The position numbers and the translations under genes are program-made. Source: Candidatus Sumerlaeaceae bacterium (GTDB lineage: Bacteria; Sumerlaeota; Sumerlaeia; Sumerlaeales; Sumerlaeaceae). Taken from it: a stretch of 64,000 nucleotides of DNA. The notes beneath the pieces are model-generated. The model had not been told where the DNA came from and made no database searches. It was given only the letters and a program-made list of their open reading frames with translations. Shown here piece after piece: positions 756 to 50,473 of the stretch (the first letter of the stretch is position 1; each line of letters starts with the position of its first letter). The DNA lies in assembly GCA_049968255.1 (NCBI GenBank), contig JBMFRB010000001.1:455433-519432 (forward strand). Direction: 5' to 3'.

Positions 756-1355
756 CTAATTGAAAGGGTGATCGCTGGTTCGCCAGATGTCACCGTTGCT
801 GACTGTTCCATTGGTGGGATCGTAAATCATGTAGTTATAGTCTGGATCCTGACCTGTGAAAATTTCCCAAGAAAACCCAGGATAGGCTTTGATGGGAACG
901 GAATCCTCGTCCAGATCAGGACCATTGGAGCTGATGGCGTAACGGTGAGGCGTTTGCAGGGGTGTGGCGCCCATTTTGTAAGCGAAGTGCCGCGGTCCCC
1001 AATCGATGTGGTTGTCTAGGTCCCAACGCTGCTCGAAGGGGTCGCGCGGAACATGTGTGAGATAAGCAATTGGAGTCGTCAGACACTCAAAGCGTTGCCA
1101 GCGGGGCGTAAGGAACGTTTCCGGATATCGTCCGTTATCGGTGTGGTAGACTTCCAAGGCGACGGCGATGGTCCGGATGTCGTTTTTTGCCAGCGCAACT
1201 TTGCTGCGAATCTGCGCTTCGAGAAAATTGGGGAGCGCGGTGGCGGCAAGTACGGAAAGGATGGCCACGACCACCAGCAGCTCGACCAAAGTCAGGGCTC
1301 GGCTCCTCGGCGAGTAGATGCTAGGGCAACTTACGGATCGAGTCAAATGGGTCAT
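756..1355 (-). CDS. Type IV pilin/pseudopilin-like protein (prepilin N-terminal methylation domain)
   Basis: RA|LTLVELLVVVAILSVLAATALPNF class III signal with Glu at +5; C-terminal YDPTNGTVSNGD shared with the paralog at 5738. Confidence 0.88.
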   Translation of the reverse strand: MTHLTRSVSCPSIYSPRSRALTLVELLVVVAILSVLAATALPNFLEAQIRSKVALAKNDIRTIAVALEVYHTDNGRYPETFLTPRWQRFECLTTPIAYLTHVPRDPFEQRWDLDNHIDWGPRHFAYKMGATPLQTPHRYAISSNGPDLDEDSVPIKAYPGFSWEIFTGQDPDYNYMIYDPTNGTVSNGDIWRTSDHPFN

Positions 1356-5737: not shown

Positions 5738-6415
5738 ATGAAGAAAGGCTTTACCCTAATCGAGCTGTTGATCGTGGTGGCAATCATTGCGATCCTGGCA
5801 GCTATCGCGGTGCCAAACTTCCTCGAGGCCCAGGTACGCTCGAAGGTCTCTCGTGCGAAGTCGGATCAGCGCTCGCTGGCAACGGCCATTGAGGCGTACT
5901 TTGTCGATAACAACCTGTATCCGGCTGCAGCGCGCGAGGGATCAGGCACTTGTGCTGCCCCGAACGCAACAGTTCCGGTCAATCCGGCGGGATCTGGCAA
6001 CTTCAATAAATATGCCAATCCATCGAACCCCAACACGCAGCTGCGCAACGTGTTCAGCTTTGCAGTGAAGGGAACCACGGCGATAGGCCTGCTGACCACC
6101 CCGATTGGCTACATCACCAGCTATCCGGCCGATCCGTTCACGGATACGAAGGGCGCAACATTCTGCTACTTCGCGAATGCGAATGGGTGGATCCTGTGGA
6201 GCCCCGGTCCCGACACGGACGAGGCCCAGGGAACAAACCTGGGGACCAACGCCAACCCGGGGACGAACGCTGTTGAGACCTTGTATGACGTTTCGCAGTC
6301 TCAGCCAAGCGTTACCCTCGTGGCAGGCATCGGCGGATCTCAGACCAAGGCGTTCACCTATGACCCAACCAACGGAACGGTCAGCCCGGGTGACGTTTAT
6401 CGCGTGAAGCAGTAA
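5738..6415 (+). CDS. Type IV pilin-like protein, candidate major pilin
   Basis: MKKG|FTLIELLIVVAIIAILAAIAVPNF canonical prepilin peptidase site; strong SD; own terminator; C-terminal YDPTNGTVSPGD. Confidence 0.92.
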   Translation: MKKGFTLIELLIVVAIIAILAAIAVPNFLEAQVRSKVSRAKSDQRSLATAIEAYFVDNNLYPAAAREGSGTCAAPNATVPVNPAGSGNFNKYANPSNPNTQLRNVFSFAVKGTTAIGLLTTPIGYITSYPADPFTDTKGATFCYFANANGWILWSPGPDTDEAQGTNLGTNANPGTNAVETLYDVSQSQPSVTLVAGIGGSQTKAFTYDPTNGTVSPGDVYRVKQ

Positions 6416-10226: not shown

Positions 10227-11051
10227 TCACTCGGCATCGTTGCCAGTGGAAATGGGGCGGCTACGCACGCTCACGATTTTCCAGCCGTTCATAGTTTTGC
10301 GCAGCATGTAGCGTTCGTCTTTAGCGATGACTTGTGTACCGACACGATCTTCGCGCAAGCAGTCCACCGCAGCCATCACATGGCTAATTTTGACATGAAG
10401 GTCGAGCACATGCTGCTGAATCTTCTGACCGCTACGTTCCTCGTAGGCTTTCCGTCGGCGCACAATGTAGTCGTCGCGGCTTAGCCCAGCACGCATCTCT
10501 TCTGCAAGTGCCTCGTATTCAGTGGCGAAATCTCGCGTGTTCCAACTTTCGACGAAGACACGGACCACTTCTTTCGGATCCTGCTTCCAATCGGCCGGTA
10601 ATTGCCTCACCGGCAAAAGCTCCGGCTGAGATTCCTCCACTTCCTTGGCATGGTTTCCTTCCGAGAGATATTGGCGACGCCGGAGCAAATGCTCGACTCG
10701 CCCGAGCAGGGCCAGTGGCTCAAATGGTTTCGACAGAAAATCGTCGGCCCTCAGCCCTGCCGCCCAGAATGACTCTGGCTTGTCGGAGACCGCACCAAGA
10801 GAGGAAATAACCATCAGCGGCATGCTGGCAATCTCTGGCGTACGGCGGACACGGCGACAGAACTCGAGTCCACTCACTTTCGGCATGCGCAGATCAACGA
10901 TGGCCATATCGGGGCGCTCGCGAAGGAGGAGCTGCCAGCCTTCTTCGCCATCGTAAGCGCCGATGACGGTATGGCCCTTTGTCTTAAGGATGGCTTTGAC
11001 GTATTCGACAATTTCGAATTCGTCGTCTACGACTAGGATTTTGCACCCCAT
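10227..11051 (-). CDS. Response regulator receiver with an uncharacterised C-terminal domain
   Basis: KILVVDDE, DLRMP (phospho-Asp), KPF; ~110-aa C-terminal alpha+beta domain without HTH. Start moved to ATG 11051. Confidence 0.85.
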   Translation of the reverse strand: MGCKILVVDDEFEIVEYVKAILKTKGHTVIGAYDGEEGWQLLLRERPDMAIVDLRMPKVSGLEFCRRVRRTPEIASMPLMVISSLGAVSDKPESFWAAGLRADDFLSKPFEPLALLGRVEHLLRRRQYLSEGNHAKEVEESQPELLPVRQLPADWKQDPKEVVRVFVESWNTRDFATEYEALAEEMRAGLSRDDYIVRRRKAYEERSGQKIQQHVLDLHVKISHVMAAVDCLREDRVGTQVIAKDERYMLRKTMNGWKIVSVRSRPISTGNDAE

Positions 11052-11074
11052 GGCTTTACTTCTAGCGTACGCGC

Positions 11075-12187
11075 TCAGCGACATTCAAGTGTTACATGTT
11101 CGAGAATAGCGTCCACGGTTGGGGGCACTGATATTGGCTTAGGGGAAAATTCGATGGCGTTCTTAGGATCCTTGAGACCATGTCCAGTAAGCACGCAGAC
11201 AATTCGCACTTTGTCCCCCGTCGCATGGGCCCCAACAGCGGCAGGGTGATGTTTGGAAAAATATCCTGCCCGGGCATACTTGAAAAGCCCAGCCACGCTG
11301 GCCGCGCTCGCGGGCTCGCAGAAAACTCCTTCGTATCGGGCGAGGAACTGGTACGCAGCAACGATTTCCTCATCGCTCACCATATCGATGACGCCATGGG
11401 ATTCATCACGGGCCGCTTCGGCCAATTTCCAGCTCGCCGGATTTCCGATGCGAATCGCTGTGGCAAGGGTCTCGGGTTTTTCTACGACGTGTCCGCGCAC
11501 GATTGGGGCAGCACCCTCCGCCTGAAAGCCCATCATCTTGGGAAGACGACGCACGAGCCCTTTGCCGTGGTATTCCTTGTAGCCTTTCCAGTAGGCCGTG
11601 ATATTGCCGGCATTGCCGACAGGGATGAAGTGATAGTCGGGTGCATCGCCAAGAACATCACAAATCTCGAAAGCCCCCGTCTTTTGCCCCTCGAGACGAT
11701 AAGGATTGATAGAATTGACAAGGGTAATTTTGAACTGAGTTGTGACCTCGCGCACAATTCGGAGCGCATCGTCGAAATTTCCCGCCACGGCGAACACCTT
11801 CGCTCCATGCATAAGCGCTTGGGCAAGCTTGCCAAGCGCGATGTTTCCATCGGGGATGATGACAATGCATGTCATGCCTGCACGCGCCGCATATGCAGCG
11901 GCGCTCGCCGAGGTATTGCCCGTGCTGGCGCACATCACGGCGTTCGAGCCTTCTTCCAGAGCTTTGGTCACGGCCATTGTCATGCCGCGGTCTTTGAAAG
12001 AGCCGGTCGGATTCAAGCCTTCGAACTTGAGATAGACCTCGACGTGAGAGCCAACCTCGCGCGCGACTGCAGGGGCCGGAATCAGCGGCGTATTCCCTTC
12101 GTTGAGCGAGACAACAGGCGAATCGGCTTCGACAGGCAAAAACTCTCTGTAGGCAGCAATGATTCCAGCCCAGCGCGCTGAGCCCAT
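11075..12187 (-). CDS. thrC: Threonine synthase
   Basis: [14 protein letters not shown] (PLP Lys), [24 protein letters not shown]. Confidence 0.96.
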
Positions 12188-13895: not shown

Positions 13896-16800
13896 ATGCA
13901 ATTCGCGGTGTGGGTATTGATTGCCGTTCTCATGTTTGTAGGGGGACAAACTCGCGGCGAGGATTTTCAACTGGCCACAAAAGTTACTGGTCTAAATTCT
14001 CCCAACGAGCCGGTACTTTACGACGTCGACGCTGACGGTCATTTCGAGGTTCTGCTCACGGGAGTCAATGGCGAGGTCGCTGCATATCGTTTGCCCTCAC
14101 TGTCAATCCTTTGGAAGACAAAGCTCCCTGCGAAAGGACTCACTTCTGCAGCAATCGGTGATTTGCTGGGAACGGGCGAGGGTATCGCTGTTCTTGGCTC
14201 AGGCGACGGGAATGTTTTTTTCGTCCGAGCTGGCAGCGGAGAAATTCTTGCAACCTTGCCTCTGGGCAAAGCGGTGTCGGTGGCTCCAACTATTCTCCCC
14301 GCGCCGGATGAAACCACGGCATCTGCGGAAAGCGCAGTCGTTTGCGACGAGTTTGGTGAAGTGCATCTCGTCAAACTCGAGGGCCAAACGCCTTGGGTTG
14401 TTTTTTCCAGCCCGAACACACTAGAAAGTCCCACGGGGGAACAGATCTCGCTCGGTCGTGTCAACTACCCCGCCAGCATCGCTGATATTGACGGCGATCA
14501 TAAACCGGAAATCGTCGTTGGGACGGCTCTGGGGAAAGTTGTGGCGATCAGCTCGACAAATCCCAGGACACGTTATGTGTGGCACGGCCCCCAAGGGCTC
14601 TCGATTATCACAAACGTGGCAGCAGGGGATTTTTTCGGACTAGGTCGCGATGCGCTGGTCTTTGGAACGAACGCAGGCAACCTCTTCGCTATCGCGTTTG
14701 ATCCCGCCACGCACACCCTGAAAACTGCTGTTGGTCAACTCAAGCTGTCGGGGCCTGCGAACGGTCACATTCTCGCTGCCGATTTCGATGGTGACCACTT
14801 GCCCGACGTCATCGCGGGTTGCGACAACGCGGTCCTTAGCTTCGCCCCGGCTGTAGGATTTGTGCCGCGCGGTCAGCCCTATGGGGCGAACGCTCCGCCT
14901 TTCAGCCCTGTCGCGCTTATTGCGCTCGCCGACAAAACGTACCGCGCTCTCGTTATCGACGGGAAAGGAATTCTTCATCTCATCGATCCAATCAAGACTT
15001 CACCTTCGGGGTCGCTTGCGCTCGACACTGTCGCCAATAGTACAATTGTCGGAGGCAACTTGACCAACGCGGGATTTCCCGAGCTCGTCTATCTGACAAA
15101 AAACAGAGCGCGACTGACGTATGTGGGACTAACGGAGCGCAAGGTCTCGTCCGAAATTTCACCAGTGTTGGCGATGGGCAGCAATTTCCAGCGCAGCGGG
15201 GAGATCGGTACGAGACCCCTTGCACAGTTGAAAGCAAACCGCGAACGTTTCGCCAAGCTTTTAGCCTCACAAGTAGCCGAAGCAAAGCAGCTTTACGACA
15301 TGGGCCGCTATGCCGAGTGCCGAGCGACGCTGGCGCGGGTTTTGCAGGCCGTGGCGGATCACCGTGAAGCGATATCTCTCGAACGTAAGGCAGCATTCCG
15401 CCAGCATTGGCTCCTGTATGTCGCTCTGATGCTCCTCGTGGCGGGTACGGCCGGAATCGGAGTTTGGGCGGTCATGAGGCTCCGCCTACACCGAAGTGCC
15501 ATTGAGAATGTGGAAAAGCTGATAGAAATCCAAGCCTACCCGCAGGCAGCCGCGCTGCTTCAGGAACTGCGGCGGAAAGACCCCAAGAATGCGACGTTTT
15601 TGCGCCTTCTCGCGAAGGTCTATCTTTTGTGGGAACGCATTGGGACTGACACGATTCGCGTTTTAGAAGAGGCGCACCGCACCTTCCCTGACGACTCGGG
15701 GATTACGCTCGCGCTAGCCAAAGCTTACGCCGAAACGGGCGTGGAAAACGAGCAAGCCCTCGAGCTCTACCAAATCGCCCTGGCAGTCATGGAAGGCGAA
15801 CGCGGGGACATCGCCTATCGGGCGGCGAAGATTTTTGAGACCAAGGGAAACGTCGAACAAGCGATTCGGCATTACAGGCTGGCTGAAAAAGAAGGATGCA
15901 CCGCCCCCGATTTGCAGGCACGGCTCGTGGAACTTTACCTCGCTACTCATCAGTTCAACGAGAAAACCCTGCCAGCGTTCGAAAGCATGTTTTCGGAGTA
16001 CACTCAGGACGCGCGGTTCCTTGAAGGGCTGTGCCGCGCCCAGGCGGCTGCGCGACGTGTGGACGACCGCGCGCGTGCTGCCGCATCGAGCTTGCTCGCT
16101 CTCAAGCCAGACTCCGTCGTCGCCCTTCGGCAGCTAGCCAAATGCGAACTTCAGGCGGGTCGCCACGAAAAGGCGAAGAACTTCGCGGAGCGAGCATTTG
16201 CCCTAGAGCCAAATGATGACGAAACGGCCTTGGTGTTAGCGTTCTGTTATTCCGCCTTGGAATTTTTCGAACCCAAGGCGCGCGAGATTTACAGACGCGC
16301 TCTTGCCTTGGATCCGCAAAACCCCACTTTCCTCCGGTGCGCAGCACTGACTGATCACACAACGTTGGGTAGGCCTCTTGATGAAACTGATTTCGACATT
16401 CTTAAGCGCGCCGTCCAGGCTAACCCTAACGACGTGGTCCTGTTGCGTACCTACGCCGAAGAGTGCCGAAAACGAACTGATTTCACCAGTGCCCGTGAAG
16501 CGCTCGAGAGACTCTTGGAACTCGGAGGCCAGAGCTCGGCAGTGTATTGCAGTTTGGCAGAGGTGTATGCCTTACAGGGCGAATTCAGCTCTAAAGCCAT
16601 TCCTGCCTATGAGGAAGCCCTGGCCGCTGACCCTGAGAACGCAACCTACTTGGAGGCATTGGCCCGCAGTTACATAGTTGCAGGACGCAAAGATCCCGCC
16701 GCAATTCAGTTGATCGAAAAGGCGCTCAAAAAAGTGCCTCGTGCCATTGAGCTGGGGGTGTACCTTGCAAAAAATTATCTAGAGACAGAACGTTATGAGG

Positions 16801-18737
16801 ACGCACTGAAACTTGCTCGTTGGCTACTAGAGCGCGATAAAGAAAATGAGGAAATTCAGAAGCTCTTCGCCCAAGCCTCATTCGCTTCTAACCGACTCGA
16901 TGAAGCGATAGAGCAGTATCAGCACGTCTTGGCCAAACACCCTGATGATTCCGAAGCCTTGGTGAACATTGCGCTCGCGTTTGCGCGAAAACACCGCACG
17001 GATGCAGAAGCCGCGCAGCGCTACACGGCCGCACTGGCGGTGTCACCCGCCCAACCATTGATCAGGTTCATGCTGGCGCGCCATCACGCCATGGCGGGAC
17101 GTTATGGCGCAGCCTTGGATCAATTGGCCGAAATCCTGCGTATATCGAACGAACATCAGCCGCGACTTTTAGACGAAGTGAGGCTCTATCTGGCCCATGC
17201 GCCGGATCGCGCCGACCTGCGCTGGTTCTGCGCCACCCTCCTCACTGAAATGGAACACATGGACGAAGCATGCGAGGAGATTGAAAACCTTCTCGCGCTC
17301 GAGCCCGGCGAGACAAAAGCAATCCTTCAGGCCTACGATCGCATTTTGGGCAAAGACCCTCTCAACGTCACAGCTCTCGTCGGTAAGGCACGCCTGTTGC
17401 GGGCGATGGGAAATCACGAGGCGGCCAAGCCGCTGCTGGAGCAAGCTCACCGCATTTCACCAAAGAATGCCGATGCGCGCAACGAACTAAAAGAACTCTA
17501 CGAGGAAATTCTCCAAGAAAAGGACGAAACGGAGATCCGTTTCGAACTCGCCAAGCTTCATTTTGAAGAAGGCGCCTACGACAGAGCAATCGCCCTGTTC
17601 CAGAAAACAGTTCTAGATTTCCGCTTCGAGAACGAATCCATCAAGATGCTGGCGCGCTGCTTCATGGAAAAAGGCATGCTCGAGTTCGCATTCCAGGAGC
17701 TGCGCAAACTCCTGATTGATGACGAGGTCAAGGAACTGCTCTACACGCTTGCCCAGCGCTACGAAGCGAAAAATGATTTCGTCGGCGCCAAGCAGGTTTA
17801 CCGCGTGCTTTTCGCCGCCGATATGAACTACCGCGACGTGAAACATCGTTTCGAGATGCTCGCTGGCGCCACGAGTGACCCCCTGGCTCTCGATAGGTCT
17901 GAGCTTATCACCCAACTGGGCGAACGAGCACGAAGCCGCTACGAATTGGTGGAAGAGCTGGGTCGCGGAGCAATGGGGGTGGTTTACCGGGCTCGCGACA
18001 ATGAGCTTGAAGAAATCGTCGCGCTCAAAATTTTGCCTGAGAATTTGTCGCAAAATCCCGAGGCACTTCATCGTTTCCGCGCGGAAGCACGCGCTGCAAG
18101 GCGACTTTCGCACCCAAACATTGTACGCATCCACGACATCGGCGAAGAAAAGGGGCGTAAATACATCTCGATGGAGTTTGTCCGGGGAACCGACCTGAAA
18201 CGCTATTTGCGGCAGAAGGGCAAGTTGAGCATTGAAGAAGCGATCTCGATCATTCTGCCCTTATGCGATGCTCTTGACTACGCGCACAGCAACTCGATCG
18301 TGCACCGCGACATCAAGCCAGCCAATATTATGATCACGGAACAGGGCGTTGCAAAACTTAGCGATTTTGGCATCGCCAAGGTCTTGGAACTGACAAGCGA
18401 AACCGTGACCGGTGCAATCATTGGGACACCCCTCTACATGAGTCCGGAGCAGGTGCAAGGCCAACCGGTCGATCACCGCGCCGACATTTACTCGCTGGGC
18501 ATCACGTTTTATGAGCTGCTCGCCGGCAAACCGCCCTTCACGGAGGGCGACATTGCGTATCAGCACTGCCGTGTGCCGGCACGCCCGATTCCGGGTGTTC
18601 CAGAAGAGCTCAACGTTATCATCTTGAAATGCCTGGAAAAAGACAAAGAGAAGCGATGGGCCAGCGCGGCAGAACTCGCCCAAGCCCTGCGCTCGTGGTT
18701 CGAAAAATGGCAGCAGAGCAAACCGCTTGTGTCGTAG
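13896..18737 (+). CDS. Membrane Ser/Thr protein kinase with extracytoplasmic FG-GAP repeats and a cytoplasmic TPR array
   Basis: Signal peptide; DVDADG, ADIDGDHKPEIVVG, ADFDGDHLPDVIAG repeats; TM WLLYVALMLLVAGTAGIGVWAVM; many TPR-like helices; kinase motifs GRGAMG, VALK, HRDIKPAN, DFG, GTPLYMSPE. Confidence 0.93.
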   Translation: MQFAVWVLIAVLMFVGGQTRGEDFQLATKVTGLNSPNEPVLYDVDADGHFEVLLTGVNGEVAAYRLPSLSILWKTKLPAKGLTSAAIGDLLGTGEGIAVLGSGDGNVFFVRAGSGEILATLPLGKAVSVAPTILPAPDETTASAESAVVCDEFGEVHLVKLEGQTPWVVFSSPNTLESPTGEQISLGRVNYPASIADIDGDHKPEIVVGTALGKVVAISSTNPRTRYVWHGPQGLSIITNVAAGDFFGLGRDALVFGTNAGNLFAIAFDPATHTLKTAVGQLKLSGPANGHILAADFDGDHLPDVIAGCDNAVLSFAPAVGFVPRGQPYGANAPPFSPVALIALADKTYRALVIDGKGILHLIDPIKTSPSGSLALDTVANSTIVGGNLTNAGFPELVYLTKNRARLTYVGLTERKVSSEISPVLAMGSNFQRSGEIGTRPLAQLKANRERFAKLLASQVAEAKQLYDMGRYAECRATLARVLQAVADHREAISLERKAAFRQHWLLYVALMLLVAGTAGIGVWAVMRLRLHRSAIENVEKLIEIQAYPQAAALLQELRRKDPKNATFLRLLAKVYLLWERIGTDTIRVLEEAHRTFPDDSGITLALAKAYAETGVENEQALELYQIALAVMEGERGDIAYRAAKIFETKGNVEQAIRHYRLAEKEGCTAPDLQARLVELYLATHQFNEKTLPAFESMFSEYTQDARFLEGLCRAQAAARRVDDRARAAASSLLALKPDSVVALRQLAKCELQAGRHEKAKNFAERAFALEPNDDETALVLAFCYSALEFFEPKAREIYRRALALDPQNPTFLRCAALTDHTTLGRPLDETDFDILKRAVQANPNDVVLLRTYAEECRKRTDFTSAREALERLLELGGQSSAVYCSLAEVYALQGEFSSKAIPAYEEALAADPENATYLEALARSYIVAGRKDPAAIQLIEKALKKVPRAIELGVYLAKNYLETERYEDALKLARWLLERDKENEEIQKLFAQASFASNRLDEAIEQYQHVLAKHPDDSEALVNIALAFARKHRTDAEAAQRYTAALAVSPAQPLIRFMLARHHAMAGRYGAALDQLAEILRISNEHQPRLLDEVRLYLAHAPDRADLRWFCATLLTEMEHMDEACEEIENLLALEPGETKAILQAYDRILGKDPLNVTALVGKARLLRAMGNHEAAKPLLEQAHRISPKNADARNELKELYEEILQEKDETEIRFELAKLHFEEGAYDRAIALFQKTVLDFRFENESIKMLARCFMEKGMLEFAFQELRKLLIDDEVKELLYTLAQRYEAKNDFVGAKQVYRVLFAADMNYRDVKHRFEMLAGATSDPLALDRSELITQLGERARSRYELVEELGRGAMGVVYRARDNELEEIVALKILPENLSQNPEALHRFRAEARAARRLSHPNIVRIHDIGEEKGRKYISMEFVRGTDLKRYLRQKGKLSIEEAISIILPLCDALDYAHSNSIVHRDIKPANIMITEQGVAKLSDFGIAKVLELTSETVTGAIIGTPLYMSPEQVQGQPVDHRADIYSLGITFYELLAGKPPFTEGDIAYQHCRVPARPIPGVPEELNVIILKCLEKDKEKRWASAAELAQALRSWFEKWQQSKPLVS

Positions 18738-49362: not shown

Positions 49363-49860
49363 TCAAAGCGACGAGGATTGCTTATTACATGGAGAGAACA
49401 ACTCGTTGAGCTTTTCATTGATAGCTTCCAACGAGCGTGTGGACGGTGTTCTTTTTGTCTTGTCGCCAAGGAGGATGCGAGCTTCTTCGACCAAGCCTTT
49501 GAGAGCCGCATCAAGAATCTTGTCGTCGCGGGCAACCAGGCAGAATGTGCAAACAAAGAGCCGGTCGTCCACTTCGATGAACCGAAAGACAGCTTGATTT
49601 GTGAGCATCCGGACAAGGAATTCGCGCCGATCGCTGTCCGGCATCACAGCGGAGATCGTCGAAAAGACGCCGGCGGCAGTTGCTCCCATTTGCTCTTCGG
49701 AGAGAGGCAGCTCGCCAGCATGACTGAGAATTGCCCCCGTTCGGTCGACTAACGCCACAGCGGTCAAGTGACCTTTTCGAACAAGCGCGCGCAACTGCTG
49801 TTCGATGCGCGCGAGCGCCTCGGGATCAACAAACACAATGTTTCGGCTTCGCGACGTCAT
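49363..49860 (-). CDS. mglB: Roadblock/LC7 protein, MglB-like
   Basis: AVALVDRTGAILSHAG roadblock pattern, C-terminal INEKLNELF helix, directly after mglA. Confidence 0.75.
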   Translation of the reverse strand: MTSRSRNIVFVDPEALARIEQQLRALVRKGHLTAVALVDRTGAILSHAGELPLSEEQMGATAAGVFSTISAVMPDSDRREFLVRMLTNQAVFRFIEVDDRLFVCTFCLVARDDKILDAALKGLVEEARILLGDKTKRTPSTRSLEAINEKLNELFSPCNKQSSSL

Positions 49861-49873
49861 GGAGCAAATGTTT

Positions 49874-50473
49874 TTAAAGTCTGGCGTGCAGATCCTCATT
49901 GAGCTTCGTCACAACTGCCGCGCAGATGGCTTTGAACGTTTCCACGACTCCCACGGATTGAATTGCAATGGCCTCGAACCAGGGCACGTTGCGCTCATTG
50001 AGAGTGCGGTTGAGTTGCTCTACACTCAGGATATTGGGCAGATCGCGTTTATTATATTGGATGACGAGTGGGAGCGAAGAGTAGTCGTATCCATACTCTG
50101 CGAGCAATCCCTTCATGTCGGCCAAGCTGGCTAGATTGTCGGCTAAACGGTTAGCATCGGAATCGGCGACGAATACAATGCCGTCCACGCCTTGCAGCAC
50201 CATCTTTCGCGTGGCACGATAATAGTCCTGACCTGGGACGCCATACACAAGAAAGCGCGCCTTCAGGCCGCGAATCTGGGCTACGTTGAGAGAAAAATAA
50301 TCGAAAAACAGAGTGCGTTCATCGGCCGTGTCGATGATTTGCAATTCACTGCGGTGTTGCGCTGGCAATGCCGCATGGATCGCTTTGATGTTAGTGGTCT
50401 TCCCTCCTAGACTTGTGCCACAATAAACGATTTTGCAGTTGATCTCGCGAGACCTGTAGTTGATTATCGGCAT
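49874..50473 (-). CDS. mglA: MglA-family small GTPase
   Basis: INYRSREINCKIVY, GKTTN, RTLFFD, VPGQ, GVDGIVFVADS, NKRD. Confidence 0.92.
   Translation of the reverse strand: MPIINYRSREINCKIVYCGTSLGGKTTNIKAIHAALPAQHRSELQIIDTADERTLFFDYFSLNVAQIRGLKARFLVYGVPGQDYYRATRKMVLQGVDGIVFVADSDANRLADNLASLADMKGLLAEYGYDYSSLPLVIQYNKRDLPNILSVEQLNRTLNERNVPWFEAIAIQSVGVVETFKAICAAVVTKLNEDLHARL

Follow-up and report, generated by a model that had tools for sequence, protein, structure and literature searches.

A near-core receptor-type Ser/Thr kinase of Sumerlaeota with a predicted periplasmic propeller and a pre-kinase TPR triad probably related to that of SgmX

In a 64,000-nucleotide stretch of DNA from Candidatus Sumerlaeaceae bacterium (GenBank assembly GCA_049968255.1, contig JBMFRB010000001.1, forward-strand positions 455,433 to 519,432; “the window” below), we analyzed a gene at 13896..18737 on the plus strand. 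It encodes a predicted single-pass receptor Ser/Thr kinase of 1613 amino acids (aa), here called the receptor. The gene is a single open reading frame (ORF) without internal stop and with a purine-rich site directly ahead of its ATG, and full-length orthologs exist. In Pfam searches, FG-GAP_3 (E 1.7e-9) and FG-GAP (E 1.5e-6) were placed at the N-terminus (first 310 residues), many tetratricopeptide repeat (TPR) families matched with their strongest stretches within residues 716-1191, and Pkinase covered residues 1349-1593 (E 3.3e-60). The host genome is a 3.1-Mb metagenome-type assembly of 31 contigs, 96% complete, with 11 kinases above the Pfam cut-off.

A protein search returned eight full-length relatives with 44-78% identity, one of them labelled Candidatus Sumerlaeaceae, while its remaining matches covered at most 23% of the query. 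With only the outer domain as query, matches appeared in 56 of 75 Sumerlaeota genomes. We fetched 63 regions around such matches, and in 42 of these a single ORF of more than 1500 codons encodes a propeller, then three TPR segments, then the kinase; the others held copies that were split or cut by contig ends, forms with the outer half only, or propellers that are unrelated. Together with the receptor, the 42 ORFs make up the set of 43 used throughout. Forty full-length database proteins share the architecture as well. No RNA run was listed as containing the sequence. One DNA run covers 24 of 30 bins, in short contigs that show no joints; it may be the source sample and lends no independent support.

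The receptor starts with a predicted cleavable signal peptide (residues 1-21, 13896..13958), called from hydropathy and found at the same position in 40 orthologs out of 43; in the structural model, strands begin at residue 24. Next come a predicted periplasmic beta-propeller (residues 22-416, 13959..15143) and a helical stalk with one TPR-like hairpin, likewise predicted to be periplasmic (residues 439-503, 15210..15404), which is modelled as helices and whose profile positions 425-464 match consensus TPR proteins. A single transmembrane helix (residues ~505-529, 15408..15482) leads into a cytoplasmic TPR array (residues ~535-1200, 15498..17495) and then a conserved pre-kinase TPR triad that ends in a Y-R-D-V motif (residues ~1205-1325, 17508..17870). 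The chain closes with a Hanks-type RD kinase domain of PknB/StkP type (residues 1349-1593, 17940..18674), all of these features being on the plus strand. The two most hydrophobic 19-mers are residues 1-19 and 509-527. As judged from the ORF and from the layout conserved in the 43 members, the receptor is confirmed as a real, intact ORF with the predicted type I order of signal peptide, propeller, one helix, TPR and complete C-terminal kinase, as had been proposed from the single sequence.

Membrane topology was called with hydropathy heuristics, rather than dedicated predictors, on the 43 full-length ORFs. A signal-peptide-like hydrophobic core stands right ahead of the propeller in 40 of them; two of the three that failed are cut by contig ends, and the third scored 1.64 against a bar of 1.7. 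In each of the 43 a single helix occupies the same position, ~480 residues past this core, and hydropathy gave no second strongly hydrophobic window in any member. Net charge past the helix is positive in 43/43, but the 15 residues ahead of it are net positive in most members too, so charge alone cannot orient the helix. Two kinase-free relatives (L026:4950-6629 and L031:4935-6629, both plus strand) consist of signal peptide, propeller, helix and a short basic tail. An end right past the helix is what a stop-transfer helix would give if the N-terminus lies outside. By established reasoning, the kinase domain is placed in the cytoplasm by its need for ATP (see also PMC11032199). Within the reach of these heuristics, the receptor therefore has the N-terminal signal peptide, the one helix and the C-terminal catalytic domain of a type I single-pass protein. 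An uncleaved N-terminal anchor would yield the same sidedness as the predicted cleaved signal peptide.

An alignment-based model of residues 22-535 reached a predicted local distance difference test score (pLDDT) of 95.3 and a predicted template modelling score of 0.92, compared with a pLDDT of only 39 for a single-sequence fold. The modelled propeller spans residues ~22-416, the first strand of the mature chain closes the ring, and helices then run into the membrane helix. By our reading of the model strands, the propeller has eight four-stranded blades. The best fold matches were YxaL (Z 32.9, root-mean-square deviation 2.5, 321 residues aligned), BamB (Z 32.2, 2.6, 317), the biofilm matrix protein Bap1, a related calcium-loop propeller (Z 28.0, 3.0, 366), WD40 eight-bladers and KICSTOR subunits, with identities of 8-16% across these matches. 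FG-GAP_3 was found in 31 of 43 members and the BamB-type PQQ_2 in 24 of 43.

Integrin alpha chains are defined by a seven-bladed propeller followed by Ig-like thigh and calf domains. The original prediction had described the ectodomain as integrin-alpha-type, and this was borne out in part: FG-GAP repeats over the Pfam cut-off and three intact DxDxDG calcium-loop motifs (residues 43, 197 and 296) are present, but the model has eight blades with helices only after them. No integrin chain was among the fold matches listed, which by itself does not exclude a family outside that list. Across the family the calcium loops are variable (18, 4, 12 and 15 of 43 members at four sites). The propeller is also the fastest-diverging and least conserved part of the protein, and only four of its columns reach 90% conservation, so that no conserved binding residues stand out. 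Forty-one proteins outside the family, drawn from the returned matches of two protein searches and thus not a census, pair a related propeller with a kinase; in 41/41 the kinase comes first with a hydrophobic segment between, and none is propeller-first.

The kinase domain carries all of the expected catalytic motifs: glycine loop (1356), VALK (1375), HRDIKPAN (1470), DFG (1490) and GTPLYMSPE (1510). K1378, E1397, the HRDxKxxN motif (D1472, N1477), DFG, T1503 in the activation loop, L1371 and D1414 are invariant in 43/43 members. The first five motif patterns all fit in 39 of 43; the four exceptions belong to family f16 and miss the glycine-loop pattern. The domain is thus predicted to be an active Hanks-type Ser/Thr kinase, having the glycine loop, VAxK, helix C glutamate, HRDxKxxN, DFG and an APE-like motif. 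The closest solved structures are PknB (E 1.9e-60) and StkP (E 2e-59), and bacterial Pkn kinases fill the top 20, the best eukaryotic match being 24 orders weaker (E 4e-36). The kinase does not belong to a eukaryotic family such as RLK/Pelle or the TGF-beta receptors. The description of the protein as eukaryote-style is therefore apt for its topology and not for its kinase, and because the latter is of bacterial PknB/StkP type the eukaryote-like layout is convergent.

The NCBIfam PknB model NF033483 scored 334.9, below its 450-bit cut-off. No PASTA family appeared among the Pfam matches shown for the receptor, which does not have the arrangement of N-terminal kinase and C-terminal PASTA domains. 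In PknB numbering, L1371 and D1414 align with the positions of L33 and D76. These two are residues of the back-to-back kinase dimer interface, according to the account in PMC13434768.

Conservation climbs along the chain, with median identities over the 43 ORFs of 19% in the propeller, 26-32% in the TPR array, 55% in residues 1201-1345 and 62% in the kinase. The count of TPR units is unreliable, as a self-built profile found 8 where ~800 aa has room for about 23. The array had been viewed as an ~800-aa spacer; it is indeed long, but the last three TPRs are a distinct module conserved about as well as the kinase. This module also precedes the kinase in the host genome's four other C-terminal kinases, namely an Hsp70 fusion, two TPR fusions and a membrane-anchored clathrin-repeat fusion, and in all five it lies ~20-45 residues ahead of the kinase domain.

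The triad also ends a kinase-free protein of 857 aa (L087:5730-8303, minus strand), encoded ~2 kb ahead of the window start and 16 kb upstream of the receptor gene, which has N-terminal hydrophobic segments followed by a TPR array. Matches to its triad occur in 72 of 75 genomes of the phylum, and the triad profile aligns with that of the receptor triad (99.7% probability, E 4e-25). This triad is also the most SgmX-like region that we found: among NCBIfam families SgmX ranked first, matching 11 of 28 members with a best E of 1.1e-9 at positions 898-1014 of the 1065 in the model, and only two ORFs among the TPR proteins of the host genome, both triad-bearing, matched SgmX model positions 891-1040. 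SgmX has 1060 aa, and its last three TPRs, lost through a frameshift after residue 802, are described as binding MglA-GTP (PMC7668184; see also PMC9811614 and PMC13408092). These comparisons suggest that the receptor triad is related to the MglA-GTP-binding triad of SgmX, mostly through the kinase-free 857-aa paralog. The receptor is not a full-length, soluble SgmX in the sense of NF052243 (cut-off 1800 bits), as ~55-120 residues match at 15-28 bits. A word-limited search with the paralog's triad profile returned no SgmX-named proteins, and ESM Atlas searches gave generic TPR clusters only. Similar C-terminal triads end proteins of other phyla, for example ~460-aa proteins of Verrucomicrobiota. 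The database protein P0213 (1488 aa) has a signal peptide, a related propeller, one helix, TPR and a C-terminal triad, with no kinase.

A profile of the pre-kinase module matched once in each of 62 genomes out of 75, always with at least 148 bits; below these the score dropped to 117 (counted by hand). In a tree of the 43 orthologs, which cover 14 families, all nine multi-member families each fell on one side of a branch with an SH-like approximate likelihood ratio test (SH-aLRT) value of 99-100. Among 185,579 species genomes scanned with a pre-kinase motif we obtained 43 loci, of which 39 have titles naming Sumerlaeota, Sumerlaeia, Sumerlaeaceae or BRC1 and 4 read only “bacterium”; since the motif was drawn from the receptor family, the scan favors that family. 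Among ten distant representatives, the only taxon-named one is from Sumerlaeota (32% identity to the nearest genome member), and no full-length relative named from another phylum was among the database matches. On this sequence evidence, the receptor is a near-core, single-copy, vertically inherited gene of Sumerlaeota, and it is likely to be restricted to that phylum.

In a kinase tree of 47 rows, the receptors lie on one side of a branch (SH-aLRT 94), and the sister is the Hsp70-triad-kinase (SH-aLRT 97). The receptor was thus probably built on a soluble triad-kinase in the phylum ancestor by gain of signal peptide, propeller and helix. In the sister (L090:3879-7361, plus strand), which is also present in other families, an Hsp70 domain (Pfam E 6.6e-181) is N-terminal to the TPR triad and kinase.

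The window also contains a small GTPase gene, mglA (49874..50473, minus strand; E 6e-62 to Myxococcus MglA, PDB 6h17), 31 kb from the receptor gene, whose product is a hypothetical candidate partner of the triad. At 49363-50473 on the minus strand, mglA is followed by a gene of 178 aa without Pfam or NCBIfam match, which is MglB-like by position only; the roadblock family PF03259 was not found in the host genome. A second, longer MglA paralog occurs in this and many other Sumerlaeota genomes. MglA was matched in 53 of 75 genomes, and the receptor is present in 47 of those 53 as compared to 15 of the 22 without detectable MglA (counted by hand). That these 15 keep the receptor speaks against an obligate link between the two. 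Triad identity, with MglA-bearing genomes as the reference, was 0.27-0.52 in genomes without MglA and 0.46-0.70 in those with it. Neither genome with an outer-half-only relative has the short MglA.

A pilus connection comes from a second sister kinase. A gene for an MshEN-PilB/GspE ATPase adjoins the gene for the clathrin-repeat/propeller/triad kinase (L088:3927-9329, minus strand), and it stands directly ahead of that kinase in 15/15 genomes having it (15 of 16 loci). By analogy, this pairing echoes the link between SgmX and PilB described in PMC7519303, though for a paralog of the receptor. The host genome has seven PilB/GspE-like ATPases scoring above 440 bits, one of which is over the type IV pilus PilB cut-off. 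Pilin-like genes were seen at window positions 756-1355 and 5738-6415.

Several other genes lie near the receptor or its relatives. A gene for an FHA-GAF-SpoIIE (PP2C) phosphatase (L087:9377-10969, minus strand), which overlaps the window start and is clustered with receiver and TPR proteins, is a candidate for the cognate phosphatase. There are 11 FHA matches in the host genome, and an FHA-histidine kinase is encoded upstream of the receptor in three genomes of one family. A receiver domain with an unassigned C-terminal domain (window 10227-11084, minus strand) is encoded near the receptor in four own-family genomes. A small lipoprotein-like gene without Pfam match (L030:4895-5551, minus strand) is matched in 67 of 75 genomes; it follows the receptor in five genomes of two families, and in another family it stands behind the Hsp70-triad-kinase in four fetched genomes. 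In the host genome it follows a putative secretin-like gene and precedes a putative hslU. The receptor's neighbours in the window, FMN reductase, thiamine-phosphate synthase, threonine synthase and adenylylsulfate kinase, were rejected as functional partners because they are common to only 4 own-family genomes.

We favor, with moderate confidence, the explanation that the protein is a vertically inherited, single-copy inner-membrane receptor that senses the envelope, is activated by clustering and carries a docking triad beside its kinase. The propeller would bind an envelope protein or polymer; as it diverges fast, a protein partner is more likely than a fixed small ligand. Binding or local crowding would cluster receptors, and the kinases would then pair via the N-lobe interface of PknB-type kinases, each phosphorylating the activation loop of the other, where T1503 is invariant. 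The long TPR rod may space the kinase from the membrane and gather partners, and the triad just ahead of the N-lobe may be a docking switch that gates activation or localization by binding a partner. Judged by the probable kinship with SgmX and by the gene neighbours of the sister kinases, the pathway most probably serves cell polarity or the pilus/secretion machinery.

A number of observations weigh against this explanation. The ligand, the substrate and the activity of the receptor are putative only. For its own triad the match to SgmX is weak (E 0.004); the SgmX model is matched by 29 of 43 receptors, but at least as many are matched by each of four other TPR families. The ortholog-level triad match is missing from 13 of 75 genomes, some of them incomplete and one a single contig (G069), and two relatives keep the outer half only; the gene is dispensable in some lineages. 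The ortholog and kinase trees were quick searches without a tested root. Residues of the L33/D76 type are common to PknB-type kinases generally. The activation model itself is presented as debated (PMC13434768). The pilus link comes from a paralog and not from the receptor gene. Finally, synteny of the Sumerlaeota loci showed no receptor neighbour conserved across the phylum and no neighbour gene family common to more than a few taxonomic families, so gene context does not name the pathway.

The alternatives differ mainly in what the triad and the propeller would bind, and the confidence we attach to them overlaps with that of the favored explanation. In a more specific form of it, which we consider tentative and rather unlikely, the receptor is a direct MglA effector: MglA-GTP would bind the triad, and the kinase would join the envelope signal to the polarity switch and control type IV pili. 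The chain of homology from the triad to the SgmX M-domain (PMC7668184, PMC9811614) points this way, as do the restriction of matches at SgmX positions 891-1040 to triad-bearing ORFs, the presence of mglA in the window and in most genomes, the higher frequency of the receptor and the better-conserved triad where MglA is found, and the PilB over cut-off in the host genome. A precedent for an interaction between MglA and a kinase is MasK, reported as binding MglA (PMC3546991). However, none of the seven f8 and none of the seven f16 genomes yielded an MglA match, yet the receptor is retained in 6 and 4 of them and the kinase-free triad protein in all 14. Triad identity falls in step with that of the other TPRs and the kinase, does so on long branches and was measured against MglA-bearing genomes, and the kin are not independent. 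In addition, similar C-terminal triads are widespread, and the partner may therefore be something else. Another possibility is that the triad acts only in cis, as an autoinhibitory or dimerizing clamp on the kinase N-lobe, and that the propeller, rather than sensing a ligand, tethers the protein structurally, perhaps to envelope-assembly proteins in the manner of BamB, giving a localized, constitutively anchored kinase. This fits the close spacing of triad and kinase in all five C-terminal kinases, the kinase-like conservation of the triad and the poorly conserved, BamB-like propeller; moreover, two lineages keep propeller and helix without kinase, which indicates that the outer half is useful alone. 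It is nevertheless doubtful, as the triad also ends kinase-free proteins (the 857-aa family, P0213 and SgmX), where it must be able to bind something in trans, and the 41 kinases that join a similar propeller to a kinase across a membrane helix suggest a sensor role.

The original prediction also suggested a receptor for glycan or surface contact. On this reading the calcium-loop propeller would bind polysaccharides such as chitin, or else the surface of a host. Chitin degradation is predicted for Sumerlaeota (PMC8092238), Bap1 is among the related calcium-loop propellers, and Photorhabdus lectins match the propeller profile weakly (E 2.7e-10). On the other hand, an inner-membrane anchor with an outer part of ~480 residues would place the propeller in the periplasm rather than at the surface, assuming a diderm envelope. 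The lack of conserved binding residues in this least conserved domain, the variability of the calcium loops and the absence of conserved glycan genes beside the receptor also speak against it; we found nothing to support glycan binding and regard this function as quite improbable. That the gene is an assembly artefact or a chance fusion could be suspected of a metagenome-type assembly in 31 contigs, but the probability is negligible: the whole architecture stands in one ORF in 42 other genomes, in a tree that spans 14 families, and in 40 full-length database proteins, which refutes it. Of these possibilities, the envelope-sensing receptor with a docking triad is the one that we prefer.

Bacterial membrane Ser/Thr kinases are almost always described as kinase-first, and here a whole phylum keeps a sensor-first single-pass receptor as a near-core gene. 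This shows the layout of plant and animal receptors to have arisen independently around a bacterial kinase. Sumerlaeota are uncultured and have no described signalling biology; the receptor would be a central signalling protein of the phylum, and its gene may serve as a phylum marker. If MglA-GTP binds the triad, bacteria would have protein kinases gated directly by a small GTPase. It is an unlikely but consequential proposal that the core type I receptor kinase of Sumerlaeota is also a small-GTPase effector, in which MglA-GTP on the SgmX-like triad, together with envelope sensing, gates phosphorylation that steers polarity or pili. If true, the receptor and its four sister triad-kinases would be a family of bacterial kinases gated by a GTPase, which combine in one chain, by convergence, the eukaryotic receptor and Ras-effector-kinase logic.

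The architecture is apparently undescribed. As the original prediction had supposed, we found no characterized protein with it and no description of the receptor in the literature searched, which covered main texts and few subscription papers; an earlier mention of type I bacterial kinases is thus possible. The words TPR, tetratricopeptide, threonine and FG-GAP are absent from the main text of the principal Sumerlaeota genome paper (PMC8092238).

Among known systems, the kinase domain is closest to those of PknB and StkP, and with the PknB/StkP/PrkC-type receptor kinases the receptor shares the RD type, a single membrane helix and the N-lobe interface positions. Unlike them, it is sensor-first with a predicted cleavable signal peptide, lacks PASTA domains and has its kinase last, separated from the membrane by ~800 aa of TPR. 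Surveys of bacterial membrane kinases describe them as kinase-first with outer TPR, WD40, PASTA or NHL domains (PMC11032199, PMC1262709, PMC2877116). The WD40, TPR and FG-GAP receptor kinases of Planctomycetota and Myxococcota likewise combine a Hanks kinase, one helix and a propeller or TPR array (PMC11032199), and PknD, with its NHL propeller, has the same parts (PMC2877116). In these proteins, however, the kinase is N-terminal and TPR or WD40 repeats are mostly periplasmic; the WD40, TPR and FG-GAP families expand by lineage, whereas the Sumerlaeota receptor is single-copy and vertical. The receptor is inverted relative to PknB, as had been proposed, yet a sensor-first order is not without precedent in bacteria: cyanobacterial CHASE2 Ser/Thr kinases have an extracellular sensor N-terminal to the kinase, although three membrane helices follow that sensor and there is neither propeller nor TPR rod (PMC2176072).

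The outer domain resembles BamB, YxaL, Bap1 and ITFG2-type propellers, its best fold and profile matches. Those proteins have identities of only 11-16% and, unlike them, the receptor is membrane-spanning and kinase-coupled; a shared fold shows no function. The triad is probably related to the C-terminal TPRs of the MglA effectors SgmX of Myxococcus and Bd2492 of Bdellovibrio, but SgmX is described as soluble, without kinase or membrane anchor (PMC7519303), and only ~120 residues match. With plant receptor-like kinases and animal receptor Ser/Thr kinases the receptor shares the type I layout, and the kinase-less form in two genomes is reminiscent of plant receptor-like proteins; in contrast to these, its kinase is of bacterial PknB type, and the resemblance is convergent. 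Taken together, these sequence comparisons suggest that the receptor belongs with the bacterial receptor Ser/Thr kinases, as a variant whose possible link to small-GTPase signalling can be tested.

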